Below are positions 21,273 to 63,008 of a DNA stretch of 64,000 bases, in pieces. The position numbers and the translations under genes are program-made. The DNA comes from an uncultured Candidatus Peribacteria bacterium (GTDB lineage: Bacteria; Patescibacteriota; Gracilibacteria; UBA4473). Below the pieces are notes generated by a model that saw nothing but the letters and a program-made list of their open reading frames with translations, ran no database searches and had not been told where the DNA came from. Where the stretch lies: contig CAYFJZ010000005.1 of the NCBI GenBank assembly GCA_964343715.1, forward strand, positions 8,220 through 72,219. The letters run 5' to 3'. The stretch's first letter is position 1, and each line of letters opens with the position of its first letter.

Positions 21273-21604
21273 TTCGTTGGAGACAGTTAAAGAACGGATC
21301 GATTTTAGGCGGGATCATACGAATGGCAAGTTTTTATATAAATAGTTTTTACAAAACAATATTTATAGAATAAAAAACAAAGATCTTTGAAAAAACAAAC
21401 AGACACCGATCTGCTCTACTCAAACAGATAGCAATACATCTTCACTCCGAATGCACTGGCTTCTGAACGAAGCAAATGTAGATGTTCTATCTGTTGAACC
21501 AATTCTCGAAATACCCTAGGAGATATCACAAAATGAAAGCAATCAAATACTACAAAGAAATTCCTGGTCGCAATGATTCATTCAGTTTTTCATAGATCAA
21601 AAAA

Positions 21605-43707: not shown

Positions 43708-44004
43708 TTAATCAATAAAAGAAGGGCCTATCTGACAAGGAATTACTTCTATATTTTTCCAAACCTCCCCCACGACATAAGGTTCGATTTTTAACCATTC
43801 ATCCAACTCTTTTCGGGATGCAAAATCCACAATATAGACCGATCCATTCATTTGCCCCTCATCACTCAAAAGAGCCGCCCCATACAAAGCTTTTCCTTCA
43901 GCTTTGAGACGATCTCCCATACGGATATGATCCTCCCGAACCTTTAAACGTCTGTCCAAAGCCTCTTTATCTTTTCCATCCCGAGCGATAACTATGAATG
44001 GCAT
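43708..44004 (-). CDS. YciI-family protein
   Basis: From the ATG at 44004: MPFIVIARDGKDKEALDRRLKVREDHIRMG...GSVYIVDFASRKELDEWLKIEPY. The longer ORF to 44052 runs into tRNA-Lys. Confidence 0.7.
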   Translation of the reverse strand: MPFIVIARDGKDKEALDRRLKVREDHIRMGDRLKAEGKALYGAALLSDEGQMNGSVYIVDFASRKELDEWLKIEPYVVGEVWKNIEVIPCQIGPSFID

Positions 44005-44018
44005 GAGCTCTAAAAAAA

Positions 44019-44094
44019 TGGTGGGTTGGGCGGGATTCGAACCCGCGACCAATAGCTTAAAAGGCTACTGCTCTACCAACTGAGCTACCAACCC
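44019..44094 (-). tRNA. tRNA-Lys (anticodon TTT), CCA encoded
   Basis: The reverse complement is gggttggtagctcagttggtagagcagtagccttttaagctattggtcgcgggttcgaatcccgcccaacccacca, with anticodon loop cttttaa. Confidence 0.9.
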
Positions 44095-44300
44095 GTCGTC
44101 GGACGTGACTGTGCACATTCCGTTTTGTTCCGAATAGCTACACAAAACTACATGTTCTCCGTAACGTTCTCCTCTCCAAAAAGCACTTATGGACTGAACT
44201 TTCTCAATCACTTTTTGGGGAAATTTGGGGGCCCCTTTTGTTGGGGAATATCTCTGTTAAACATCATACAATCCTCATATTTGTGAAAATTCCACTCCCC
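44095..44300 (-). ncRNA. conserved structured 5' leader element abutting tRNA-Lys (copy E1; unclassified)
   Basis: Homologous to 48874-49063, 49234-49380 and 57041-57215. It has nested stems (acgtgac/gtaacgt; acat/atgt; gttttgt/acaaaac), a purine tract and a CCCC-loop-GGGG hairpin on the minus strand. Confidence 0.5.
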
Positions 44301-44371
44301 CCCTTCCAGCAAATACAGAACTGTTTTGCCCCGTTGTTAAAAACAAAAGTTCAACACACAAGACGCGGTGG

Positions 44372-44399
44372 ATTGTAGCTCCCACAACGGGTTTGTCAA
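44372..44399 (-). promoter_or_regulatory. sigma70-like promoter (TTGACA-N16-TACAAT) for leader + tRNA-Lys
   Basis: On the minus strand, ttgaca (44394-44399), a 16-nt spacer and tacaat (44372-44377). The -10 and downstream block CTACAATCCAC is shared with 49438-49465. Confidence 0.65.
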
Positions 44400-44601
44400 A
44401 AAAACAGAACCCGCTCTAAAAATCACACCCAAATCTACCCGTTACCCGACGAAAACTCTCTACGTGATCAGCTTGGGCTCAAACCAAAAATATTTAAAAC
44501 CGACGTTTTATATCATTGGTAGATCCACAATAAAATCTACTATCTTCTTTTTTACTTTGTAATAAATACAAATATCCAGTCATAGTATTATATTAAGTCT
44601 C

Positions 44602-44626
44602 AAAAAAACCTCTTTTGTAAAAGAAG
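44602..44626 (-). terminator. possible terminator after tRNA-Ala(TGC)
   Basis: The minus strand reads CUUCUUUUACAAAAGAGG (short stem) followed by U7. Confidence 0.4.
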
Positions 44627-44641
44627 CGTTTTTGATTTTCT

Positions 44642-44718
44642 TGGTGGAGCTAAAGGGATTCGAACCCTTGACCCCCTGCTTGCAAAGCAGGTGCTCTAGC
44701 CAGCTGAGCTATAGCCCC
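44642..44718 (-). tRNA. tRNA-Ala (anticodon TGC), CCA encoded
   Basis: The reverse complement is ggggctatagctcagctggctagagcacctgctttgcaagcagggggtcaagggttcgaatccctttagctccacca. Confidence 0.9.
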
Positions 44719-44739
44719 GTTATTTCTTTGTTCCTATCT

Positions 44740-44973
44740 CTACCACATGGCAGGCCCGAGAAGACTATAAAAAAATTCTCTGAGACCTCCTCCAATCCAC
44801 AAAAAGGAAAGGATAATCAGGACCACACCAAATAGTTTAATAAAACTATAGGTTCGACCTGGGCCCATGTGACGCTCGGCAAACTCAATCTCGCCAGTAA
44901 AGTCGCCAACCTTTTTGGTATAAACGACCATCAACACCCCCGCGACAATGAGTATCCAAGGAAAGAGGAACAT
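44740..44973 (-). CDS. small hypothetical membrane protein (2 TM)
   Basis: 77 aa: MFLFPWILIVAGVLMVVY...FIKLFGVVLIILSFLWIGGG. Confidence 0.5.
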   Translation of the reverse strand: MFLFPWILIVAGVLMVVYTKKVGDFTGEIEFAERHMGPGRTYSFIKLFGVVLIILSFLWIGGGLREFFYSLLGPAMW

Positions 44974-45095
44974 TTCGACACCTCAAAAGAACAAAGTGAC
45001 GCAATTTTAGTGGAGGACAACCGATTGTCAAAAAAGTTCTCAGACAGGCTTTATTTTTTCGCTTTTTTAAGGTATAATATAAAGATTTTCATAAG

Positions 45096-46040
45096 ATGAT
45101 TCTCAAAAAAATATTAACCCTCGGGAAAAAACAACTCGCTCCCCTTTTGTGTGCGCTTTTCATAACGCTGAGTTTTTCGCCTGTATTGGCAAGCGAAAAC
45201 GGCCGAAACCTAATCCCCTTAGAAGCTACTGGGTTTGACGGAATCATGACCACCAACAAAGTCCAACAAGCCATTGACCCCAATCTAGAAAAAACCCAAG
45301 ACGCACTCAAAGATCTTTTTTCTTCCTCCAACGGGACCCAAGTTATCCTCATTGCCAATCGTATCTTGGGGATCGTTGCCATACTGTGGATCATGATCAT
45401 CGGTACCAAAATGGCCGTGGTTTCACGAGGGAACGACGAAAACATGACCAATTACAAGAAACAACTCGGATGGGCCGTGTTGGGGCTGGGAGTCATATCG
45501 GCAGCCGAATTTGCCGGTTATGCCGTCTTTGATCCGACCAAAGACCTACTCACAGGCTCTGCCAGTGGTGAATTCCGAGCCAAAACCATTCAGATCAAAC
45601 ACTTCGTGCAGTACTTAGCCTTTGGCGTGGCCCTAATAGCCTGTGTGATTTCGGGCTTCAAACTGATGACTGCCGCCACCGATGATGAAACCATTACCAA
45701 CGAAAAACGATTCGTCCAGGCCTTTCTAATTGGTACCGGACTTATCTTTCTCTCAGAAGTAATCACCCGAATTATATCTTTTCAGGAACAGTGGAACCAA
45801 GGAGATGGAACAGCCGCTGCTACCGCGGGAGTAAATGAAGTCATCGGAATCATAAATTTCGCGCTGACTTTTGTTGGTTGGGCGAGTGTCTTTATGCTCG
45901 TACTAGCCAGCTTGTACTACGTCGCCAGTTTCGGATCCGAAGATCAAACTCAACGCGCCAAACGAATTATCATTGCCTGTGTTGTAGCAATCGTGATCAT
46001 TCTCTCCAGCTACGCGATTATTAACTTCTTTGTGCGATAA
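45096..46040 (+). CDS. membrane protein with two tandem VirB2/TrbC-like pilin modules
   Basis: Signal peptide, then two TM-loop-TM hairpins: ...FGVALIACVISGFKLMTAATDDETITNEKRFVQAFLIGTGLIFL and ...WASVFMLVLASLYYVASFGSEDQTQRAKRIIIACVVAIVIIL. Confidence 0.6.
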   Translation: MILKKILTLGKKQLAPLLCALFITLSFSPVLASENGRNLIPLEATGFDGIMTTNKVQQAIDPNLEKTQDALKDLFSSSNGTQVILIANRILGIVAILWIMIIGTKMAVVSRGNDENMTNYKKQLGWAVLGLGVISAAEFAGYAVFDPTKDLLTGSASGEFRAKTIQIKHFVQYLAFGVALIACVISGFKLMTAATDDETITNEKRFVQAFLIGTGLIFLSEVITRIISFQEQWNQGDGTAAATAGVNEVIGIINFALTFVGWASVFMLVLASLYYVASFGSEDQTQRAKRIIIACVVAIVIILSSYAIINFFVR

Positions 46041-46041
46041 G

Positions 46042-47019
46042 ATGATGAATCCCATCAAAAGACTCGGAATGCTAACCGGCCTCTTACTAGGCCTAGGACT
46101 CGCTATAACTACCAGTCTGATCCCCCAAACCAACGCCCAAGGACAAGTCCCAAGCTCCACCGCTGTATTCGGCGAAGGCAACTTTCTCAACCGTTCAACA
46201 GGCTCTGAAGACGATATGGGATCCCTGGTTCGAGACTACACCAAAGGAGGAGCCGAGGGAGAAGTTCAGATTCGAAACACGATTATCAACGCAATTAATT
46301 TCCTCAAAAAACTGCTGATTCCCATTACCTTTGTACTCTTTGCCTGGGCTGGGGTCGAGCTCTATCTCACCCACGGAAACGAAGAAGATCTCAAGAATAA
46401 GAAAAACATGGTCATCGCAGCCTCGATGGGGTTTGCCGTGATTCTTTTGGCCTACACTATGGTCGACAACGTTTTCTTTGGGAAAGAAGGAAAAATCCTA
46501 ATCGGGGACGAATCAGCCTCCAATGCCATGGCCCAGGTCGGAGTGAATGAAATCAAGGGAATAATTGCCTTCCTCACCACCTTTGCCGTCGCTATCGCTG
46601 TCGCCTTTGTGGTTATTGCCGCCATGAAACTGATCATGGGAGGCGAAAACGAAGAAGAAATCGGAAACATCAAAAAACAAGTCATCTACGCCTGTCTGGG
46701 AATCACCGCCATTATGGTCGCCTCCCCCGTCGTAGAATTCATCGCCACCGAAAACGAAATCCGAACCTTCGATCCGGCCAAAATGAATACCTTCTACCCC
46801 ACCCTAGTTCGATACACCAATATCATCCTCGGGTTCATCGGGGTGATTGGCGTGATTTCTCTCATCTATGGTGGAATTCGACTCATCCTGGGATTCGAAG
46901 ACGAACAGGCCACCGAAGACGCCAAAAACATTGTTATCTACTCAGTTATCGCCGTCGTCCTTGCCTTTTCAGCTTTCACTATCACACGGTTTCTCATTAC
47001 GCCTCCGGCGGTGATGTAG
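46042..47019 (+). CDS. membrane protein with three tandem VirB2/TrbC-like pilin modules
   Basis: The ATG at 46042 lies just after the upstream TAA. Three hairpins carry loops LTHGNEEDLKNKKN, IMGGENEEEIGNIKKQ and ILGFEDEQATEDAKN. Confidence 0.6.
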   Translation: MMNPIKRLGMLTGLLLGLGLAITTSLIPQTNAQGQVPSSTAVFGEGNFLNRSTGSEDDMGSLVRDYTKGGAEGEVQIRNTIINAINFLKKLLIPITFVLFAWAGVELYLTHGNEEDLKNKKNMVIAASMGFAVILLAYTMVDNVFFGKEGKILIGDESASNAMAQVGVNEIKGIIAFLTTFAVAIAVAFVVIAAMKLIMGGENEEEIGNIKKQVIYACLGITAIMVASPVVEFIATENEIRTFDPAKMNTFYPTLVRYTNIILGFIGVIGVISLIYGGIRLILGFEDEQATEDAKNIVIYSVIAVVLAFSAFTITRFLITPPAVM

Positions 47020-48025
47020 GGTCTTGCTCCAAAAGCTTCACCCCCAGAGCCTCCAAAGTCCCCTGACCACCAATTTTTTGAGCCACCTCTCCACAGTGCT
47101 CTCTTCTTACCGAACCTCCCACAGCAAGATAATTTTTCATGCGTTCAAGAGCCGCCTTGGCGTCTTCCATTCCTTCTGAAACAAAATAACTCTTATACGT
47201 TAACAAATAACCAATCGCCTTTTGGCAGATTTCACAGATTTCTTCTTCTGAACTTCCTATCTCCTGAGGGGTTATGCCAAGGTTAAGGGGACGCAATAAA
47301 CGATCAAAGAATCTCAAAAAAGTTTGTACATCCCGCCTATCTTCACAGGTATCAACAATTCTGTTAATAATTTCCAAAGCCTTCGCCGAGTAAGCAAAGT
47401 AAGCCTCACGATTCTGACGAAAATAAATCTCAATTTCATCTGGTTGTCCTCCCCAAAGATCCAGATCATGCTGATTAAGGTCTCCTTCCATTAACCCAGA
47501 AGCCAATCTCAGTCCCCTCCTTTGAGGAATCGTCATTCCATAGCGTTCCGCCAATTGCTGCTCCTTCTTATGAATTTCACCTCGCATTTGATCCTGCCTA
47601 ATCACACTAAGGTCCTCTTCTATACTCATCGTACGAGTCAAAGACATTTTCGTTACAAAACAAACCTGTTTAAACCGCTCAAAATTACGCAGAGCTTCTC
47701 TGGAGGCGAGCGGTTGAGGACTTAACTTTTCTCTCACTACTGCCAAAAGGGCTCTTCCTCGAATGATATCCGCCATCTGAGTAATTTTTTCGAGCCGATC
47801 CTGAAGTTTTTCGGCCAAAAGGGACAAGTCTTCCCTTTCCAGATTAAAACGAAAAAGCCACTCAGCGAATTCAAAAATAACTGCTTCTGGGATCTGCCCT
47901 GCCTGGTCGACTTTCTTTGCCATTGCCATTACCTCTCTGGCCGTTTCACTCCCCTCATAAAGTCCTATTTCACGTCGTTCGGTAAAAGGGCCATAAAAAT
48001 CGTTTGTGGGATCAAATCTTTCCAT
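46997..48025 (-). CDS. hypothetical protein
   Basis: 342-aa ORF, helical and acidic, with no recognised motif. It overlaps the convergent 46042-47019 by 23 nt. Confidence 0.55.
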   Translation of the reverse strand: MERFDPTNDFYGPFTERREIGLYEGSETAREVMAMAKKVDQAGQIPEAVIFEFAEWLFRFNLEREDLSLLAEKLQDRLEKITQMADIIRGRALLAVVREKLSPQPLASREALRNFERFKQVCFVTKMSLTRTMSIEEDLSVIRQDQMRGEIHKKEQQLAERYGMTIPQRRGLRLASGLMEGDLNQHDLDLWGGQPDEIEIYFRQNREAYFAYSAKALEIINRIVDTCEDRRDVQTFLRFFDRLLRPLNLGITPQEIGSSEEEICEICQKAIGYLLTYKSYFVSEGMEDAKAALERMKNYLAVGGSVRREHCGEVAQKIGGQGTLEALGVKLLEQDPTSPPEA

Positions 48026-48290
48026 GAAAGTATTAAGAATAACTCTTTTAATAATGTTTGTATTTCAAACAAAATGATAAGTCAAAACAAAGCAATCAAA
48101 AAAGTATTTTTTTAAATTGTCCAATTATCAGGAAGAGAATCCGAGAATCCTGTGCCCTCTCTACTGTACCAAGTGGATTGTGATTTTTATATAGCATGCT
48201 AACGGCTATTTGTTTAACATTTTCGAAATTAACCCCGAAAGCATTCGGCTAATTTCTTCAAAAGAAGCGTGTAGTTCTTGGAAGAGGTCT

Positions 48291-48638
48291 TCACCTCTGG
48301 CTATTAATTAACCCGAGAAGCATTTTTGAAATTTCTTCAAATTGACTGTAAAAATACTGAAATTTTTCTTCCAAAATTTGTTGATCATCATGAATAACAT
48401 CAAATAGAGAAACACACTCGTAAACTGATCCCCTAGCAATCACATAAAAATTTCGTTTATCCGCTTTTGTGAAACGACCACTTCCCTCAGCAATGTTTAT
48501 GACCATGCTGATAGAAGCTCTGCGTAGCTGATCTCTCAGGTAAGTATCAATTTGTTTATTTTCTTTTAAAAATTTTTGAACATCTTTGTTGAGGGCTTTT
48601 GTTTTTTTATATACAGAGAGATTTTCGAAGTCGAACAT
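48291..48638 (-). CDS. four-helix-bundle protein (23S rRNA intervening-sequence protein / Avd-like family)
   Basis: MFDFENLSVYKKTKALNKDV...LRRASISMVINIAEGSGRFTKADKRNFYVIARGSVYE is the typical family signature. Confidence 0.8.
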   Translation of the reverse strand: MFDFENLSVYKKTKALNKDVQKFLKENKQIDTYLRDQLRRASISMVINIAEGSGRFTKADKRNFYVIARGSVYECVSLFDVIHDDQQILEEKFQYFYSQFEEISKMLLGLINSQR

Positions 48639-48664
48639 GGGATAAATATTAAAATTTTCCTTTG

Positions 48665-48760
48665 CTCACACTAATTACTAAATACTCATTACTCAAATTT
48701 TTGCCATGAGGAAACCTCCACCGTTGTAGGGGGGTGAGTGTGAGTAGTTAGTATTTAGGG
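48665..48760. repeat. pair of oppositely oriented heptamer arrays
   Basis: ctcacac taattac taaatac tcattac (48665-48694) faces gtgagtg tgagtag ttagtat ttag (48733-48758). The arms are complementary heptamer by heptamer but not perfectly colinear. Confidence 0.55.
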
Positions 48761-48783
48761 ATAAATTTTTTTGCAAAAATTTA

Positions 48784-48873
48784 TGGCGGAGAGAGAGGGA
48801 TTCGAACCCTCGGTGAGATTGCTCCCACACACGCGTTCCAGGCGTGCCCATTCGACCACTCTGGCATCTCTCC
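48784..48873 (-). tRNA. tRNA-Ser (anticodon GGA), long variable arm, CCA encoded
   Basis: The reverse complement is ggagagatgccagagtggtcgaatgggcacgcctggaacgcgtgtgtgggagcaatctcaccgagggttcgaatccctctctctccgcca. Confidence 0.9.
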
Positions 48874-49063
48874 TCGTCGTCGATGACTGCGTATGTTCCG
48901 CTTTCACTACGCTTTGCTTCGTGAAAACTCCACATACTCCGTCATCTCCTCCTCTCCCCAATAAGTCTCCGCATTCGCTCCGAATTCCCGGGGGCCCCGT
49001 TTTTTCGGGGAATTCTATGTAGAACATCATACAATCTTTTGTTTCATGAAAACTCCATTTCTC
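48874..49063 (-). ncRNA. conserved structured leader element abutting tRNA-Ser (copy E2)
   Basis: Stems are gatgac/gtcatc, gtatgt/acatac and (g)ctttcac/gtgaaa(ac). On the minus strand it carries GGGGAGAGGAGGAG and a CCCCG-A6-CGGGG hairpin. Confidence 0.5.
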
Positions 49064-49156
49064 TTGAGGAGAACAAACACAATTCTAAGTCTTTTCCTTA
49101 AACCTTTCCCTAAGTCTTAGAAATATTCCAAACTATTTCTATTTAAATAAATTTCT

Positions 49157-49233
49157 TGGTGGAGCTACAGGGATTCGAACCCTGGACCTCGCCCATGCCA
49201 TGGGCGCGCTCTAGCCAGCTGAGCTATAGCCCC
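49157..49233 (-). tRNA. tRNA-Ala (anticodon GGC), CCA encoded
   Basis: The reverse complement is ggggctatagctcagctggctagagcgcgcccatggcatgggcgaggtccagggttcgaatccctgtagctccacca, with anticodon loop atggcat. Confidence 0.9.
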
Positions 49234-49380
49234 TCGTCGTTGGTTACTACGTATCTTCCGTTTCCATTTCGCTATCGCTTCTCGAAAACTCCAAATACTT
49301 CGTAACCTCCTCCTCTCCCCAAAAATCCTCCATTTCATTCCGGCTTTCCAGGGGGCCCCTTTTTTTGGGGGGTAGTTTTA
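49234..49380 (-). ncRNA. conserved structured leader element abutting tRNA-Ala(GGC) (copy E3)
   Basis: Stems are ggttac/gtaacc, gtat/atac and tttcg/cgaaa. On the minus strand it carries GGGGAGAGGAGGAGG and a CCCC-A7-GGGG hairpin. Confidence 0.5.
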
Positions 49381-49437
49381 AAGAACTATTACTGTTTACC
49401 GTTTATTGATTGCTGTTCACTGTTTTAACCGCCGTGG

Positions 49438-49465
49438 ATTGTAGGATAAAAATGGAAATGTTCAA
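49438..49465 (-). promoter_or_regulatory. sigma70-like promoter (TTGAAC-N16-TACAAT) for leader + tRNA-Ala(GGC) (and possibly tRNA-Ser)
   Basis: On the minus strand, ttgaac (49460-49465), a 16-nt spacer and tacaat (49438-49443), followed by CCAC as in the 44372 promoter. Confidence 0.6.
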
Positions 49466-49576
49466 ATAATTCTCCTCAGAAAGGAGAAAACAAAAACCAT
49501 CGCCCTCTGTCAACAAATCTTATCAACACATCCTCCTTTCAAAACTCAATCATTCGTTCTACCCTTGGAGTCATAA

Positions 49577-50293
49577 ATGAAAACCATAATTATTTTCATC
49601 ATGACCTTTCTCTCTTCTCTTTCCGCACTCTTCGGTGGTTCTTCTGAAAATCCAGAAGAAAACCAAAAGAAGGCCGAAGCACTCCACCAGAAAGGACGAG
49701 AAGAAGCCGGAAAAGGCAATTATGAAGCGGGTATAAAACTCTTCAAAGAAGCTCAGACCCTAGCCCCCCAATGGCCCTATCCCCCCTACGACCTCGCCTA
49801 TACCTACCTACTCCAAGGCGACCACAAAAACGCCCTCAAATACTATCTCCAGACCGACCAGCTTTCTCCCAACGGTTTCTTCACCTGCAAAACCGCCCTC
49901 TGGAGCCTCGAAAAAGAAGCCAAAGGCATTTATCCAAAAGGTCTTTATCTCCTGTACATCGAAATCGAATGGGCCCCCTCAGCCGAAGAAAAAATTAAAA
50001 TAGCGAAAAAAATCGTCGAATCGCATCCCGACTATGCCCCCGCCTGGAAGGAACTCTTTATTCTGCTCGAAACAAAAGAAGAAAAAATGGAAGCGCTCGA
50101 AAAAGGACTCAAAAATGACCCCGACCCAGAGACCAAAGGTATTCTCCTCGCCAACAAAGCCGCTCAGCTCTATCAGAACCAACAAAAAAAAGAAGCTCGT
50201 GAACTCCTGAATCAAATCATTCAGGACCCACAAGCTTCCTTCGCCTCAAAAGGCATCGCGAAAACCCTGCTAGAGAATTTTGAACTCCAATAG
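49577..50293 (+). CDS. TPR-repeat protein with signal peptide
   Basis: 238 aa with TPR-like helices (AEALHQKGREEAGKGNYEAGIKLFKEAQTL; YDLAYTYLLQGDHKNALKYY). Confidence 0.65.
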   Translation: MKTIIIFIMTFLSSLSALFGGSSENPEENQKKAEALHQKGREEAGKGNYEAGIKLFKEAQTLAPQWPYPPYDLAYTYLLQGDHKNALKYYLQTDQLSPNGFFTCKTALWSLEKEAKGIYPKGLYLLYIEIEWAPSAEEKIKIAKKIVESHPDYAPAWKELFILLETKEEKMEALEKGLKNDPDPETKGILLANKAAQLYQNQQKKEARELLNQIIQDPQASFASKGIAKTLLENFELQ

Positions 50294-55072: not shown

Positions 55073-55103
55073 ACAAAACTTTTGAACAAGTAGTTTAAAA
55101 ACA

Positions 55104-55136
55104 GTTAAGAGTAGAAAACAAAGAGTAGAGAGTATT
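55104..55136 (+). repeat. purine-type heptamer array 3' of dnaX; left inverted repeat around the four-helix-bundle gene
   Basis: gttaagagtagaaaacaaagagtagagagtatt. Its reverse complement matches 53423-53447 at 20/25 positions and matches 55521-55552. Confidence 0.7.
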
Positions 55137-55488
55137 ACTTTTTTCTGGCAGTCTTTATAGAAGCACACAATATTCTCTGAAGCTCATCACAGTCTTTCCA
55201 CAAAGATTGGCTCAAAGGTTCTTCAATATAATCTGTTGCGCTTAACAACTTTATCCAATACCCAGTCTCTCGAGCTTCTTTATAAGCGATCGAAAGCTTT
55301 GAAGAAAATTCAGCACTTGAAATCGCTCCATTCGCCTCTTCAATATTTGCCCCAATCGAAGTTCCACTTCTCAATATTTGTTTTGATAAAATATATTCCC
55401 TCTTACTTTGAGAAAGGACTTTGTAAAGATCTACAATTCGAACCGCAAACAAAAAAGACTTATCCAACAAAACACTTTTCTTAATCAT
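55135..55488 (-). CDS. four-helix-bundle protein (23S rRNA IVS protein / Avd-like family)
   Basis: ...LRSGTSIGANIEEANGAISSAEFSSKLSIAYKEARETGYWIKLL is the family signature. Confidence 0.8.
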   Translation of the reverse strand: MIKKSVLLDKSFLFAVRIVDLYKVLSQSKREYILSKQILRSGTSIGANIEEANGAISSAEFSSKLSIAYKEARETGYWIKLLSATDYIEEPLSQSLWKDCDELQRILCASIKTARKK

Positions 55489-56966: not shown

Positions 56967-57040
56967 GACCTCATAGTTTAATGGAAAAACAACTCCCTCC
57001 TAAGGAGTAGATCCTGGTTCGATCCCAGGTGGGGTCACCA
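56967..57040 (+). tRNA. tRNA-Arg (anticodon CCT), CCA encoded
   Basis: gacctcatagtttaatggaaaaacaactccctcctaaggagtagatcctggttcgatcccaggtggggtcacca, with anticodon loop ctcctaa. Confidence 0.85.
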
Positions 57041-57215
57041 CATCGTCAGCGACTACGGATATTCCGTTGTTTTTTCGCTGCACTTCAAAAAAACTCCAGC
57101 TACTTCATCATCTCTCCTGTCCCGGCAAAGCATAACGATCTTTTCAACATGCAAAGCCAGATCCTCTCCCCAAAAATCCTTCATTTCATTCTGGATTCCC
57201 GGGGGCTCCATTATT
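57041..57215 (-). repeat. degenerate copy (E4) of the tRNA-leader element, antisense and abutting the 3' end of tRNA-Arg
   Basis: It shares the blocks cgtc.gcgactacggatattccg, aaaaactcc and ctctccccaaaaatcc.tcatttcattc.gg with E1-E3. It carries a roughly 50-nt insertion and has lost the outer-stem complementarity. Confidence 0.45.
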
Positions 57216-61967: not shown

Positions 61968-62897
61968 CTAAACCCCTTCCCCCAAATACGTCACCCAGAT
62001 AATCGTCTTCACCAAGATGTAAGAAAAGACAATCAAAGCCAACCCCAAGACTCCATAGACCATCCCATTTTTGGCTCGGGTCAACCGCTCGGTATCTCCT
62101 GCCGTCGTAGCCATATTGACTCCATTAAAAACCACAAAAAACACCGCCACCACCCCCGTAATGCCCACAATAATATCAATCGCCTTCTGAATCACAATCG
62201 TCACATCGCCTGCTTCTCCTTTCTTATCATCTTTGTCCCTACCAGGCATATATATGGGTTTCTTAGCCGCATTTTTTTTCATCGCATCACTCAAAGAATA
62301 AGGGCCCGTTGGCAGAGGCTCTTCTTCAGCCGCTTCTTCTCCTCCAGGAGTAGTAGATTCCGAATCCATTCCTCCATCAGTACCGCCATCGCCGCTCCCC
62401 CCCATATCCCCCGTCGAACTTTCTTCCGACATCCCCGCTCCCCCTCCACCACTTCGTCCACGGCCTCTGGACTTCTTCGGCCCACCTCCAAACAAATGTC
62501 TTACCGAATACCCCACCGACTTGGTCTCCTCATCAACTTCAGAAACCTTAATCTCAATATCTGGTTTTCCATGCCCATCAATATTAACTTCTTTAGAAGA
62601 GCCCTTATCAATTGAATGCTTGTCCCCATTAACGATAAAAACGGCGCCATCTGCAGTTACCGAATCTACAGAAATTGAACACGAAACAGGGCAATTTGGA
62701 GTAGCCGCTGAAGCGCCCCCCCCAGAAGTAGTCGAAGCCGCCTCGGGCGCTGGATTTTCAGCCGCCGTTGGCTCCGCAGGAGGATCATCCGCGGCCCATA
62801 TCTCCCCAAACAAAAAACCGCCTCCCACCAATACACCCAATCCCCAAAAACCAAGACGAGGAAGAAAAAGCGTTTTATTTTGGGGCCCCAACTTCAT
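61968..62897 (-). CDS. secreted Gly/Ser-rich protein ending in a VirB2/TrbC-like pilin module
   Basis: From the ATG at 62897: signal/TM LGFWGLGVLVGGGFLFG. The C-terminal hairpin reads VGITGVVAVFFVVFNGVNMATTAGDTERLTRAKNGMVYGVLGLALIVFSYIL. Confidence 0.6.
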   Translation of the reverse strand: MKLGPQNKTLFLPRLGFWGLGVLVGGGFLFGEIWAADDPPAEPTAAENPAPEAASTTSGGGASAATPNCPVSCSISVDSVTADGAVFIVNGDKHSIDKGSSKEVNIDGHGKPDIEIKVSEVDEETKSVGYSVRHLFGGGPKKSRGRGRSGGGGAGMSEESSTGDMGGSGDGGTDGGMDSESTTPGGEEAAEEEPLPTGPYSLSDAMKKNAAKKPIYMPGRDKDDKKGEAGDVTIVIQKAIDIIVGITGVVAVFFVVFNGVNMATTAGDTERLTRAKNGMVYGVLGLALIVFSYILVKTIIWVTYLGEGV

Positions 62898-63008
62898 TTT
62901 TTCGTATTTCTTTAGTAACCGAAGAATACCTTTCTCCACCAAAAAAGAAAGCCTCCCCCCACCTCTTAGTTCTTTATTCTTAATTCCCATTCATCTACCA
63001 TAAAATTA

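Follow-up and report, generated by a model that had tools for sequence, protein, structure and literature searches.

Bacterial tRNA operons can give rise to RNAs other than tRNAs; RtT RNA, for example, is released from the transcript of the tyrT operon. In some other systems—MALAT1/mascRNA, MEN-beta and the tRNA–small nucleolar RNA (snoRNA) dicistrons of plants—a downstream tRNA, or tRNA-like fold, acts as the cleavage signal that sets the 3' end of an upstream non-coding RNA. Repetitive extragenic palindromes (REPs) are ~35-nt palindromes with a GTAG-type foot that lie scattered after genes and are mobilized by RAYT enzymes. And the retrotransposons Ty3 and, in Dictyostelium, TRE5 and TRE3 rely on factors of RNA polymerase III and code for their own enzymes. 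We know of no bacterial counterpart of these tRNA-gene-targeting retrotransposons, nor of any bacterial precedent for attachment to tRNA gene ends in both orientations. Here, we describe a repeated, structured element found beside tRNA genes in a 64,000-nt stretch of DNA ('the window') from an uncultured Candidatus Peribacteria bacterium (GenBank assembly GCA_964343715.1, contig CAYFJZ010000005.1, positions 8,220–72,219). The organism belongs to the candidate phyla radiation (CPR), or Patescibacteria, which account for much of bacterial diversity and about whose non-coding RNAs, to our knowledge, almost nothing is known.

The element resembles each of these systems in part; the nearest in mode of action would be the RNAs freed from tRNA operons or, on another view, REP-type repeats. 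The 3'ETS-leuZ and metZWV spacers of Escherichia coli are released from tRNA precursors and can act in trans (Lalaouna 2015, as outlined in PMC8383071). Like these and RtT, which are freed by tRNA processing and can thereafter act independently, the element appears to be a non-tRNA segment of a tRNA primary transcript. Those RNAs, however, come from single loci, lie 3' of their tRNAs or between them, and form no covarying multi-copy family, whereas the element is repeated and deeply conserved, lies mostly 5' of many different tRNAs, and also occurs inverted or alone. The end-setting logic of MALAT1/mascRNA, MEN-beta and the tRNA–snoRNA dicistrons would apply here too, but those systems are eukaryotic and show no likeness to the element in sequence or structure, and the cleavage here is putative. 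As with REPs, bacterial interspersed mosaic elements (BIMEs) and IS200/IS605-derived repeats, the copies are short, strand-specific, imperfect hairpins with compensatory stems, intergenic, numerous and found in either orientation. Unlike a REP, each is a multi-hairpin unit of ~80–150 nt situated at a tRNA terminus, and no mobilizing enzyme was seen in the ~240 kb of DNA that we read, the gene tables of which include no Y1 HUH transposase. Its short, fixed distance from tRNA genes and defined orientation recall Ty3, TRE5 and TRE3.

The element had first been noticed, in the window's sequence alone, as a structured leader upstream of three tRNA genes. We find that it represents a new, undescribed family of structured elements, wider than that original prediction reported. 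The conserved, covarying structure in the tRNA sense stands; 'leader' describes only one of its configurations, and 'a module attached to the ends of tRNA genes' would be a more fitting description.

Copies of the element in the window

Coordinates are those of the window, and the features described lie on the minus strand unless noted otherwise. ARAGORN and Rfam together identify six tRNA genes, three of which are preceded by a well-preserved copy: E1 lies upstream of tRNA-Lys(UUU) (44019–44094), E2 upstream of tRNA-Ser(GGA) (48784–48873, CCA encoded, directly 3' of E2) and E3 upstream of tRNA-Ala(GGC) (49157–49233). The DNA upstream of these genes is homologous, as had been proposed, with a mean column identity of 66% overall (alignment A1) and far higher conservation in the last ~90 nt before the tRNA. 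The homology breaks off at tRNA position +1, although the flanked tRNAs are unrelated. E2 and E3 are 81% identical, and their purine tracts are the same. The predicted CCCC-A(n)-GGGG hairpin with CCCCC after it is present, and each leader has a single GGGGCCCCC; these three lie on the minus strand, and the window holds four in total on both strands versus 0.41 expected. The leader had been thought to join tRNA position 1 directly. This holds for E2 and E3, in which the junction is ...CGACGA|G+1, but not for E1, which has one extra C (...CGACGAC|G+1).

The core of E2 (48874–48961) consists of the purine tract GGGGAGAGGAGGAG, a rod-shaped hairpin and the tail CGACGACGA, which ends at tRNA-Ser +1. 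The rod has an outer stem, GAUGAC/GUCAUC, a middle stem, GUAUGU/ACAUAC, and an inner stem, GUUUUCAC/GUGAAAGC, and two 3x3 internal loops, GGA/GCA and GGA/GGA. The core has a minimum free energy (MFE) of -32.8 kcal/mol (z = -7.0), and it scores 96.7 and 83.4 bits with our two covariance models, R1 and R2, respectively (see below). The 5' part of E2 (48962–49063; alignment A1, fold and sequence) includes hairpin P1, CCCCG-A6-CGGGG (48995–49010), and a block shared with E1 (49011–49063 in E2, 44247–44300 in E1). It also has hairpin P2, CCCCCGG...UUGGGG (48956–48994). Core and 5' part together make up most of the tRNA-Ala(GGC)/tRNA-Ser spacer.

The E3 core (49234–49322) comprises the purine tract, the rod and the tail CAACGACGA ending at tRNA-Ala(GGC) +1. 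Its MFE is -25.4 kcal/mol (z = -6.2) and its R1 score 93.3 bits; folds and sequence place P2 at 49317–49355 and P1 at 49356–49372. In the E1 core (44095–44181; R1, 89.2 bits) the purine tract is GGAGAGGAGAA and the tail before tRNA-Lys +1 is CCGACGAC. E2 and E3 fold into the nested stems originally described; the MFE fold of E1 is different, and the homologous rod fits it with two mismatches. The 5' part of E1 (44176–44300; alignment A1 and fold) contains P2 at 44176–44220 and P1 at 44232–44246.

Both of the promoters noted earlier are where they were said to be. A scan finds a sigma-70-like promoter, TTGACA-N16-TACAAT, at 44372–44399 (11/12 positions) for E1–tRNA-Lys, and another, TTGAAC-N16-TACAAT, at 49438–49465 (9/12 positions) for an E3–tRNA-Ala–E2–tRNA-Ser unit. 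The two have the block CTACAATCCAC in common. The predicted leaders are ~270 nt long for E1 and about 200 nt for E3, and E2 lies between the two tRNAs of one unit. These positions, between a promoter and tRNA +1 or between two tRNAs, put E1–E3 inside predicted tRNA primary transcripts and therefore suggest transcription as pre-tRNA leaders or a spacer, as had been anticipated.

A fourth copy, E4 (57040–57205; model match 57040–57126), had been overlooked. It is decayed and scores 38.7 bits with R1 and 51.1 bits with R2. What remains is a P2-like hairpin (57168–57205), closest to the P2 of E3, and a rod with broken stems, separated from its purine tract by an insertion of ~35 nt (57127–57161). 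E4 is also turned around: its tail, GACGAUG, continues into the complement of the CCA end of tRNA-Arg(CCU), a plus-strand gene (56967–57040) whose 3' end adjoins it, at a junction with two extra nucleotides (GACGA-TG-TGG). The 5' flanks of tRNA-Val, tRNA-Ala(UGC) and tRNA-Arg(CCU) in the window have no element, and flanking extensions of ~8 kb per side (L009, L011) contain no further tRNAs and no further copies.

Anatomy and folding

From 5' to 3', the element consists of P1, P2, the purine tract, the P3 rod and the CGACG(A) tail. Some copies have one, and others two, of the short G+C-capped hairpins. P1 has an A-rich loop on a stem of 4–5 bp; P2, variable inside, invariably starts with CCCC(C) and finishes with GGGG. 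The purine tract, UGAGAGGNG, is conserved, in keeping with the original description. The rod, ~70–80 nt long, is composed of three helices split by two conserved 3x3 internal loops of the form 5'-G-N-A/5'-G-N-A, and is often capped by a GNNA-type tetraloop. One of its stems, GUUUU/AAAAC, is nearly invariant. Below the rod, the tail pairs with the purine tract to form a basal helix. In the window this helix has G-C pairs spaced by tandem G.A/A.G; elsewhere the same columns are plain Watson–Crick in some copies (GGAGGAG/CGACGAC in the window versus GGCGAAG/CUUCGCC in locus L002), and basal pairs 10–97 and 13–94 covary. Because these columns pair in other genomes, the base of the rod extends to within 2–4 nt of tRNA +1.

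The compensatory changes first noticed among three copies persist in a larger alignment. In the alignment of 15 copies (A8), which had been fitted to the covariance model, 87.8% of cells hold standard pairs, against 69.5% when columns are shuffled; none of 500 shuffles did as well. Both sides have changed in 19 of 21 pairs, and when the 3' partners are slid by 1–3 columns, as a control, only 35–60% of cells are paired. RNAalifold, given a 16-copy alignment, independently predicts the same rod, with compensatory changes in 15 of 18 pairs. Orthologous copies can differ almost wholly in stem sequence (e.g. GUAUGU/ACAUAC versus GACGGU/ACGGUC).

The element strand is the more stable of the two in 16 of 17 copies, and G.U pairs, summed over all 17, number 27 on the element strand and three on its complement. 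It had been argued that one U.G pair of E2 exists only in the minus, or tRNA, sense; it does, and the wider count agrees. Since the element strand folds better, and since G.U pairs are one-sided, the folded molecule is a single strand of element sense. The element is, then, a strand-specific, selected structure of RNA type.

On the complementary strand, P2 and the A-rich loop of P1 read as a G+C hairpin followed by a U-run, that is, as a terminator-like site antisense to the element. Such sites occur on the plus strand at 48985–49011 and 49342–49372 in the window, 4050–4081 in L002 and 8084–8113 in L021. In L021, the complement of the 3' half of the rod is a 9-bp hairpin with UUUUUU directly after tRNA-Pro.

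Relatives in other genomes

An exact-pattern scan of genome and metagenome collections provided three loci which, with the window, yielded covariance model R1 and later R2. Further loci were obtained through homologues of the neighbouring MtaB gene. In the ~240 kb read in all, the two models find about 19 copies in six related Peregrinibacteria-like genomes (the window's included), plus one Oscillibacter contig. In the metagenome-assembled genome (MAG) CAYFOO01 (L001, L002), two copies lie directly 5' of tRNA-fMet and tRNA-Leu, one, decayed, is convergent with tRNA-Leu, and two, M1 and M2, stand alone. MAG CAYFMH01 (L015) has copies 5' of tRNA-Ala-UGC and tRNA-Ala-GGC, and a decayed copy followed by a degenerate tRNA-Lys pseudogene. 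A JGI contig (L017) has copies 5' of tRNA-Ala-UGC and tRNA-Arg-UCU. L021 has three copies, all inverted relative to the tRNA, and L022 one further, diverged copy that was recognized by eye only. M1 and M2 are 88% identical; both keep the whole core, and both have a closing stem that covaries (CCGGGGGGA/UCCCCCCGG versus UUGGGGGGA/UCCCCCCAA).

The hosts of these copies are far apart. Their MtaB proteins are 75% identical between CAYFOO and CAYFMH, 63% between L021 and L022, and about 50% in other pairs, the window's included. At such divergence neutral intergenic DNA would be expected to be unrecognizable; with host proteins only 50–75% identical, we infer that this intergenic element is held by selection.

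The Oscillibacter copy (L003, a contig of 64% G+C) was not in the seed, and scores 46.5 bits with R1 (E = 4e-11) and 69 bits with R2. Here the element, as an insertion of ~112 nt, takes the place of ~22 nt at the 3' end of malQ; it is not present in Dysosmobacter contigs with a 92% identical flanking transporter. In a plus-strand open reading frame (ORF) of L003 (20–727), an ECF transporter S-component domain is fused to the final ~50 residues of GH77 (malQ). This fusion suggests a rearranged or chimeric contig of low coverage (1.9x), in which the insertion of the element rewrites the C-terminus of malQ.

Among viral contigs, an exact-pattern match (L004) was taken to be due to chance, having no tail and a model score of 13 bits; a relaxed pattern scan of these contigs gave no matches, and blastn against phage and plasmid collections found no relatives.

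The tRNA-Lys-like pseudogene of L015 (2596–2700) has an insertion in its D-arm, and its anticodon arm has been exchanged for the hairpin CCCCGAAAGCGUUCGGGG. The genuine tRNA-Lys lies 45 nt beyond it.

Junctions, orientation and turnover

In tRNA-linked copies, the junction is constant: the CGACG tail faces the end of the tRNA gene. Which end it faces differs. Ten copies are in the sense orientation and end 0–2 nt before tRNA +1 (...CGACGA|(C)G). They precede the genes for Lys, Ser, Ala-GGC (two), Ala-UGC (two), fMet, Leu and Arg-UCU, and one pseudo-tRNA-Lys. Five are inverted and lie at tRNA 3' ends—the three of L021, that of L022, and E4—and in four of these the junction is exactly CGACG|TGGN. 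In L021 the inverted copies follow tRNA-Pro, fill the tRNA-Ala/tRNA-Lys spacer and lie beside a remnant that resembles a tRNA 3' end. The L022 copy occupies the same Ala–Lys spacer, with very different stem sequences. Kept in both genomes, whose MtaB proteins are 63% identical, the inverted Ala–Lys arrangement is evidently old and maintained, not accidental. A sixth, decayed inverted copy (L002 2750–2827) is separated from the 3' end of tRNA-Leu by 30 nt. Finally, three copies—M1, M2 and that of L003—have no adjacent tRNA. These three, with the inverted copies of L021, L022 and E4, argue against the idea that the element is specifically a tRNA 5' leader.

About half of the tRNA genes examined carry the element, and occupancy changes with lineage. 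At the orthologous Ala-UGC/Lys locus, the sequences of which are too divergent for exact indel boundaries, the element is absent before Ala-UGC in the window, present in L015 and L017, inverted in L021 and L022, or decayed. Copies that are out of context (E4, L002 2750–2827 and L015 2517–2595) are decaying. The element, in short, is tied to tRNA gene termini, able to exist without a tRNA, prone to decay when displaced, and subject to turnover between loci. Near-consensus promoters lie 200–270 nt upstream of E1, E3 and the tRNA-Leu copy of L002; among the inverted copies, the tRNA-Pro copy of L021 has one plausible promoter for the element strand.

Where a lineage has sense copies, tRNA position -1 is always A or C, never U, and the last bases of the leader are usually ACGA(C) even where there is no hairpin, for example CAACGAA before tRNA-Val in the window and GAUGACGA before tRNA-Glu in L017. 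The flanks examined were 21273–21280, 44095–44102, 48874–48881 and 49234–49241 in the window, and 583–590 and 4561–4568 in L017. The motif is absent from the lineages of L021 and L022. An unusual preference of RNase P may lie behind it; the protein-only HARP enzymes are reported to prefer A at -1 (PMC12439589).

Comparison with known RNA families

Searched at the gathering thresholds, Rfam 15 finds only tRNAs in the window and in L001–L003, L015, L017, L021 and L022. With the threshold relaxed to E<=10, for 43800–49700 and L003, the only match to fall on the element is one to ylbH of 15.9 bits, against a gathering score of 50; weak matches to mascRNA and YrlA fall on the tRNA, not on the element. 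Nor is the element described in the full-text literature that we searched on Peribacteria, CPR RNase P, pre-tRNA leader hairpins and tRNA-adjacent repeats. The earlier remark, that no tRNA leader family with this structure was known, stands.

Several familiar kinds of leader were considered and rejected. T-box leaders have an Rfam family, which does not match, and the rod is not followed by a U-run terminator; the gene downstream is a tRNA. For a riboswitch or attenuator, the sense strand has neither a hairpin with a U-run nor a downstream ORF, and the genome does not use Shine–Dalgarno (SD) sequences. Lack of SD motifs had been remarked upon before, and they are indeed essentially missing upstream of the window's genes (3 of 29 versus a background of 0.15). 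A sense-strand intrinsic terminator would need a U-run, and none is present; the terminator-like sites are confined to the complementary strand of P1/P2 and of the L021 copy. Coding is no better, as leader ORFs are not conserved (E2 has AUG...UAG, 12 codons; E3 has no AUG) and SD usage is, again, lacking. A CsrA sponge would be expected to conserve GGA in its loops, and many copies have GAA or GUA instead.

Some other known kinds of element were rejected as well. M1 and M2 are retron-like in having a closing stem, two short hairpins and a rod; their neighbours, however, are a TPR protein, a nucleotidyl transferase and a 139-aa ORF, with no reverse transcriptase. The inverted repeats of M1 and M2 are their internal and closing stems only, and the L003 insertion has no flanking direct repeat, which is not what a miniature inverted-repeat transposable element (MITE) would show. 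An ssDNA (single-stranded DNA) hairpin on the lagging-strand template was dropped because, across loci, the strand of the element does not follow GC skew, and in L017 the two orientations occur within 4 kb of each other. Analogies to 5S, signal recognition particle, Y-RNA, bridge-RNA and retron RNAs were abandoned as the defining partner gene or motif is lacking.

What the element might be

Tentatively, we favour the view that the element is a structured RNA module, autonomous yet coupled to the ends of tRNA genes, and that, in the window, it is co-transcribed with the tRNA and cut off by RNase P. From the mapped promoters, E1 and E3 would be transcribed as leaders of 200–270 nt and E2 as a spacer. 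Cutting at tRNA +1, RNase P would leave a by-product RNA of 190–270 nt, the 3' end of which is the base of the rod. Its release by tRNA processing would resemble that of 3'ETS-leuZ from a tRNA precursor in E. coli (PMC8383071). Once released, the module might be a stable protein-binding or trans-acting RNA, its conserved G-N-A loops and near-invariant GUUUU/AAAAC helix serving as a recognition surface and its 3'-terminal rod perhaps also shielding it from exonucleases. The neighbouring tRNA, or a tRNA-shaped antisense RNA, would be a built-in processing signal that sets the end of the module. Time and again, the module would have been duplicated or lost, turned round, or carried from one tRNA locus to another.

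A number of points weigh against this interpretation. Both the accumulation of the cut-off leader and the transcription of the element strand in inverted copies are predictions. Inverted copies would require antisense-tRNA processing or independent transcription; we found no obvious element-strand promoter in the Ala–Lys spacers of L021 and L022, and there the strand certain to be transcribed is the complement. We identified neither a partner protein nor a target RNA. The GUUUU/AAAAC stem and G-N-A loops would suit a transposase, or some other DNA or RNA enzyme, equally well, and gain, loss and inversion at orthologous loci, together with the Oscillibacter insertion, are explained no less well by a selfish mobile element.

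Such an element, small, non-autonomous and inserting at tRNA gene termini in the manner of REPs, PATEs (palindrome-associated transposable elements) or MITEs, is a possibility that we take seriously, though on balance we doubt it. Its strand-specific hairpin would be needed, as an ssDNA or RNA intermediate, for spread, and in the window it would be carried passively within the pre-tRNA transcript. It would explain why copies within a genome are more alike than orthologous ones (81% for E2/E3, 88% for M1/M2), why one locus shows presence, absence and inversion by lineage, and why decaying copies occur. The tail always points towards a tRNA end, with an exact CGACG|TGG junction in four cases and GACGA-TG-TGG in E4; because the two ends of a tRNA gene, which form the acceptor stem, are mutual inverted repeats, the same CGACG end could face the tRNA at its 5' end, in sense, or after the CCA, inverted. 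The spread of copies across phyla, and the clean insertion or replacement in Oscillibacter relative to Dysosmobacter, fit too. Yet M1, M2 and the L003 insertion show no terminal inverted repeats or target-site duplications, and the ~240 kb include no genes for a transposase, reverse transcriptase or HUH enzyme: the only recombinases are the large serine recombinases of islands at tRNA 3' ends. Orientation is inconsistent relative to GC skew. The core, moreover, is kept across hosts with 50% identical MtaB, and compensatory upkeep at orthologous sites (L021 versus L022) is unusual for selfish repeats. We know of no bacterial element that homes to tRNA 5' ends. That this is the first to home to tRNA gene termini, later domesticated as a pre-tRNA leader in some CPR lineages, is in our opinion unlikely, and we are equally sceptical of the corresponding mechanism, in which a structured RNA or ssDNA module recognizes the end of the acceptor stem and inserts its CGACG tail against the 5' or the CCA end. 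Mobilization, if so, could be by an enzyme not yet identified, or by tRNA-processing or tRNA-primed chemistry.

Rather improbable, too, is a purely cis-acting role, in which the hairpin aids the processing, insulation or stability of tRNA precursors, as a 5' leader in some lineages and, by its complement strand, as a 3' trailer in others. Set 2–4 nt from the acceptor stem, the rod would keep the tRNA from pairing with its leader or trailer. It might, besides, determine where or when RNase P, RNase III or a 3' processing enzyme cuts, and protect the upstream fragment. The exact spacing to tRNA +1 or the CCA end agrees with this, as does the terminator-like hairpin and U-run that the complement of the L021 element places directly after tRNA-Pro. 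Hairpin-less leaders that likewise end ACGA(C) suggest a local RNase P preference, and the reported divergence of RNase P RNAs in CPR bacteria (PMC8172020) also counts in its favour. But M1, M2 and the L003 copy are intact with no tRNA to act on, and about half of the tRNAs seen manage without the element. Inverted copies keep the purine tract and the G-N-A loops antisense to the tRNA, whereas the RNA of tRNA sense has U-N-C loops and no basal helix. A simple insulator, finally, would need neither an invariant GUUUU/AAAAC stem nor conserved loops. Least probable of all, and in our judgement very unlikely, is a feature of the DNA itself, either a cruciform or protein site that marks tRNA gene boundaries, or a by-product of tRNA gene duplication. 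Orientation is set by the gene end and not by the direction of tRNA transcription, as a boundary mark would have it. However, stems that vary yet stay complementary, with G.U pairs on one strand only, indicate a folded single strand rather than a duplex site, and simple duplication of a tRNA gene is excluded since the flanked tRNAs are unrelated and the homology ends at +1.

Whichever applies, an RNA structure that covaries strongly, is deeply conserved, has no counterpart in Rfam and is carried by half or more of the tRNA genes examined merits attention. As a functional RNA, it would add a new layer of RNA biology linked to tRNAs, with ends formed by RNase P, a partner protein and perhaps some connection with the divergent RNase P of CPR bacteria; as a mobile element, it would be the first in bacteria targeted to tRNA gene ends. 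The covariance model can be used to annotate such genomes, and the element is a concrete target for metatranscriptomics.

Other features of the window and related loci

The window, the sequence of which is also recorded as a 208-kb NCBI contig from metagenome PRJEB17505, is 44% G+C, with a plus-strand GC skew of -0.1 to -0.4, a strong strand asymmetry; over its whole length (1–64000), the minus strand carries most of the genes. The set of genes is typical of CPR bacteria, with several type IV secretion system (T4SS)-pilin paralogues, SLH proteins and many ORFs with no Pfam match.

A small hydrophobic ORF of 77–84 aa, with no Pfam match, is kept directly upstream of tRNA-Ala(UGC) in three genomes (window 44740–44973, minus strand; L015 ~1980–2115; L017 4060–4299). 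A homologue search with this ORF returned only itself. In the window, its stop codon is 21 nt from the tRNA; in L015 and L017, the element lies between.

Genes for large serine recombinases adjoin the 3' ends of tRNA-fMet, tRNA-Ala(GGC) and tRNA-Lys (L002 1102–2529, L015 5063–6790 and L021 212–1993). They mark integrated islands, that of L015 with YqaJ-like phage genes and that of L021 with DUF3800 and SLFN/AlbA_2 genes. Two PF05635 genes (23S rRNA intervening-sequence protein or Avd-like four-helix bundle) are present in the window, at 48291–48638 (minus strand), directly downstream of tRNA-Ser, and at about 55100–55460; no reverse transcriptase gene is nearby. The T4SS-pilin (PF18895) paralogues, of 314–340 aa, are both tandem and dispersed, at 45096–47019 and 61968–62990.

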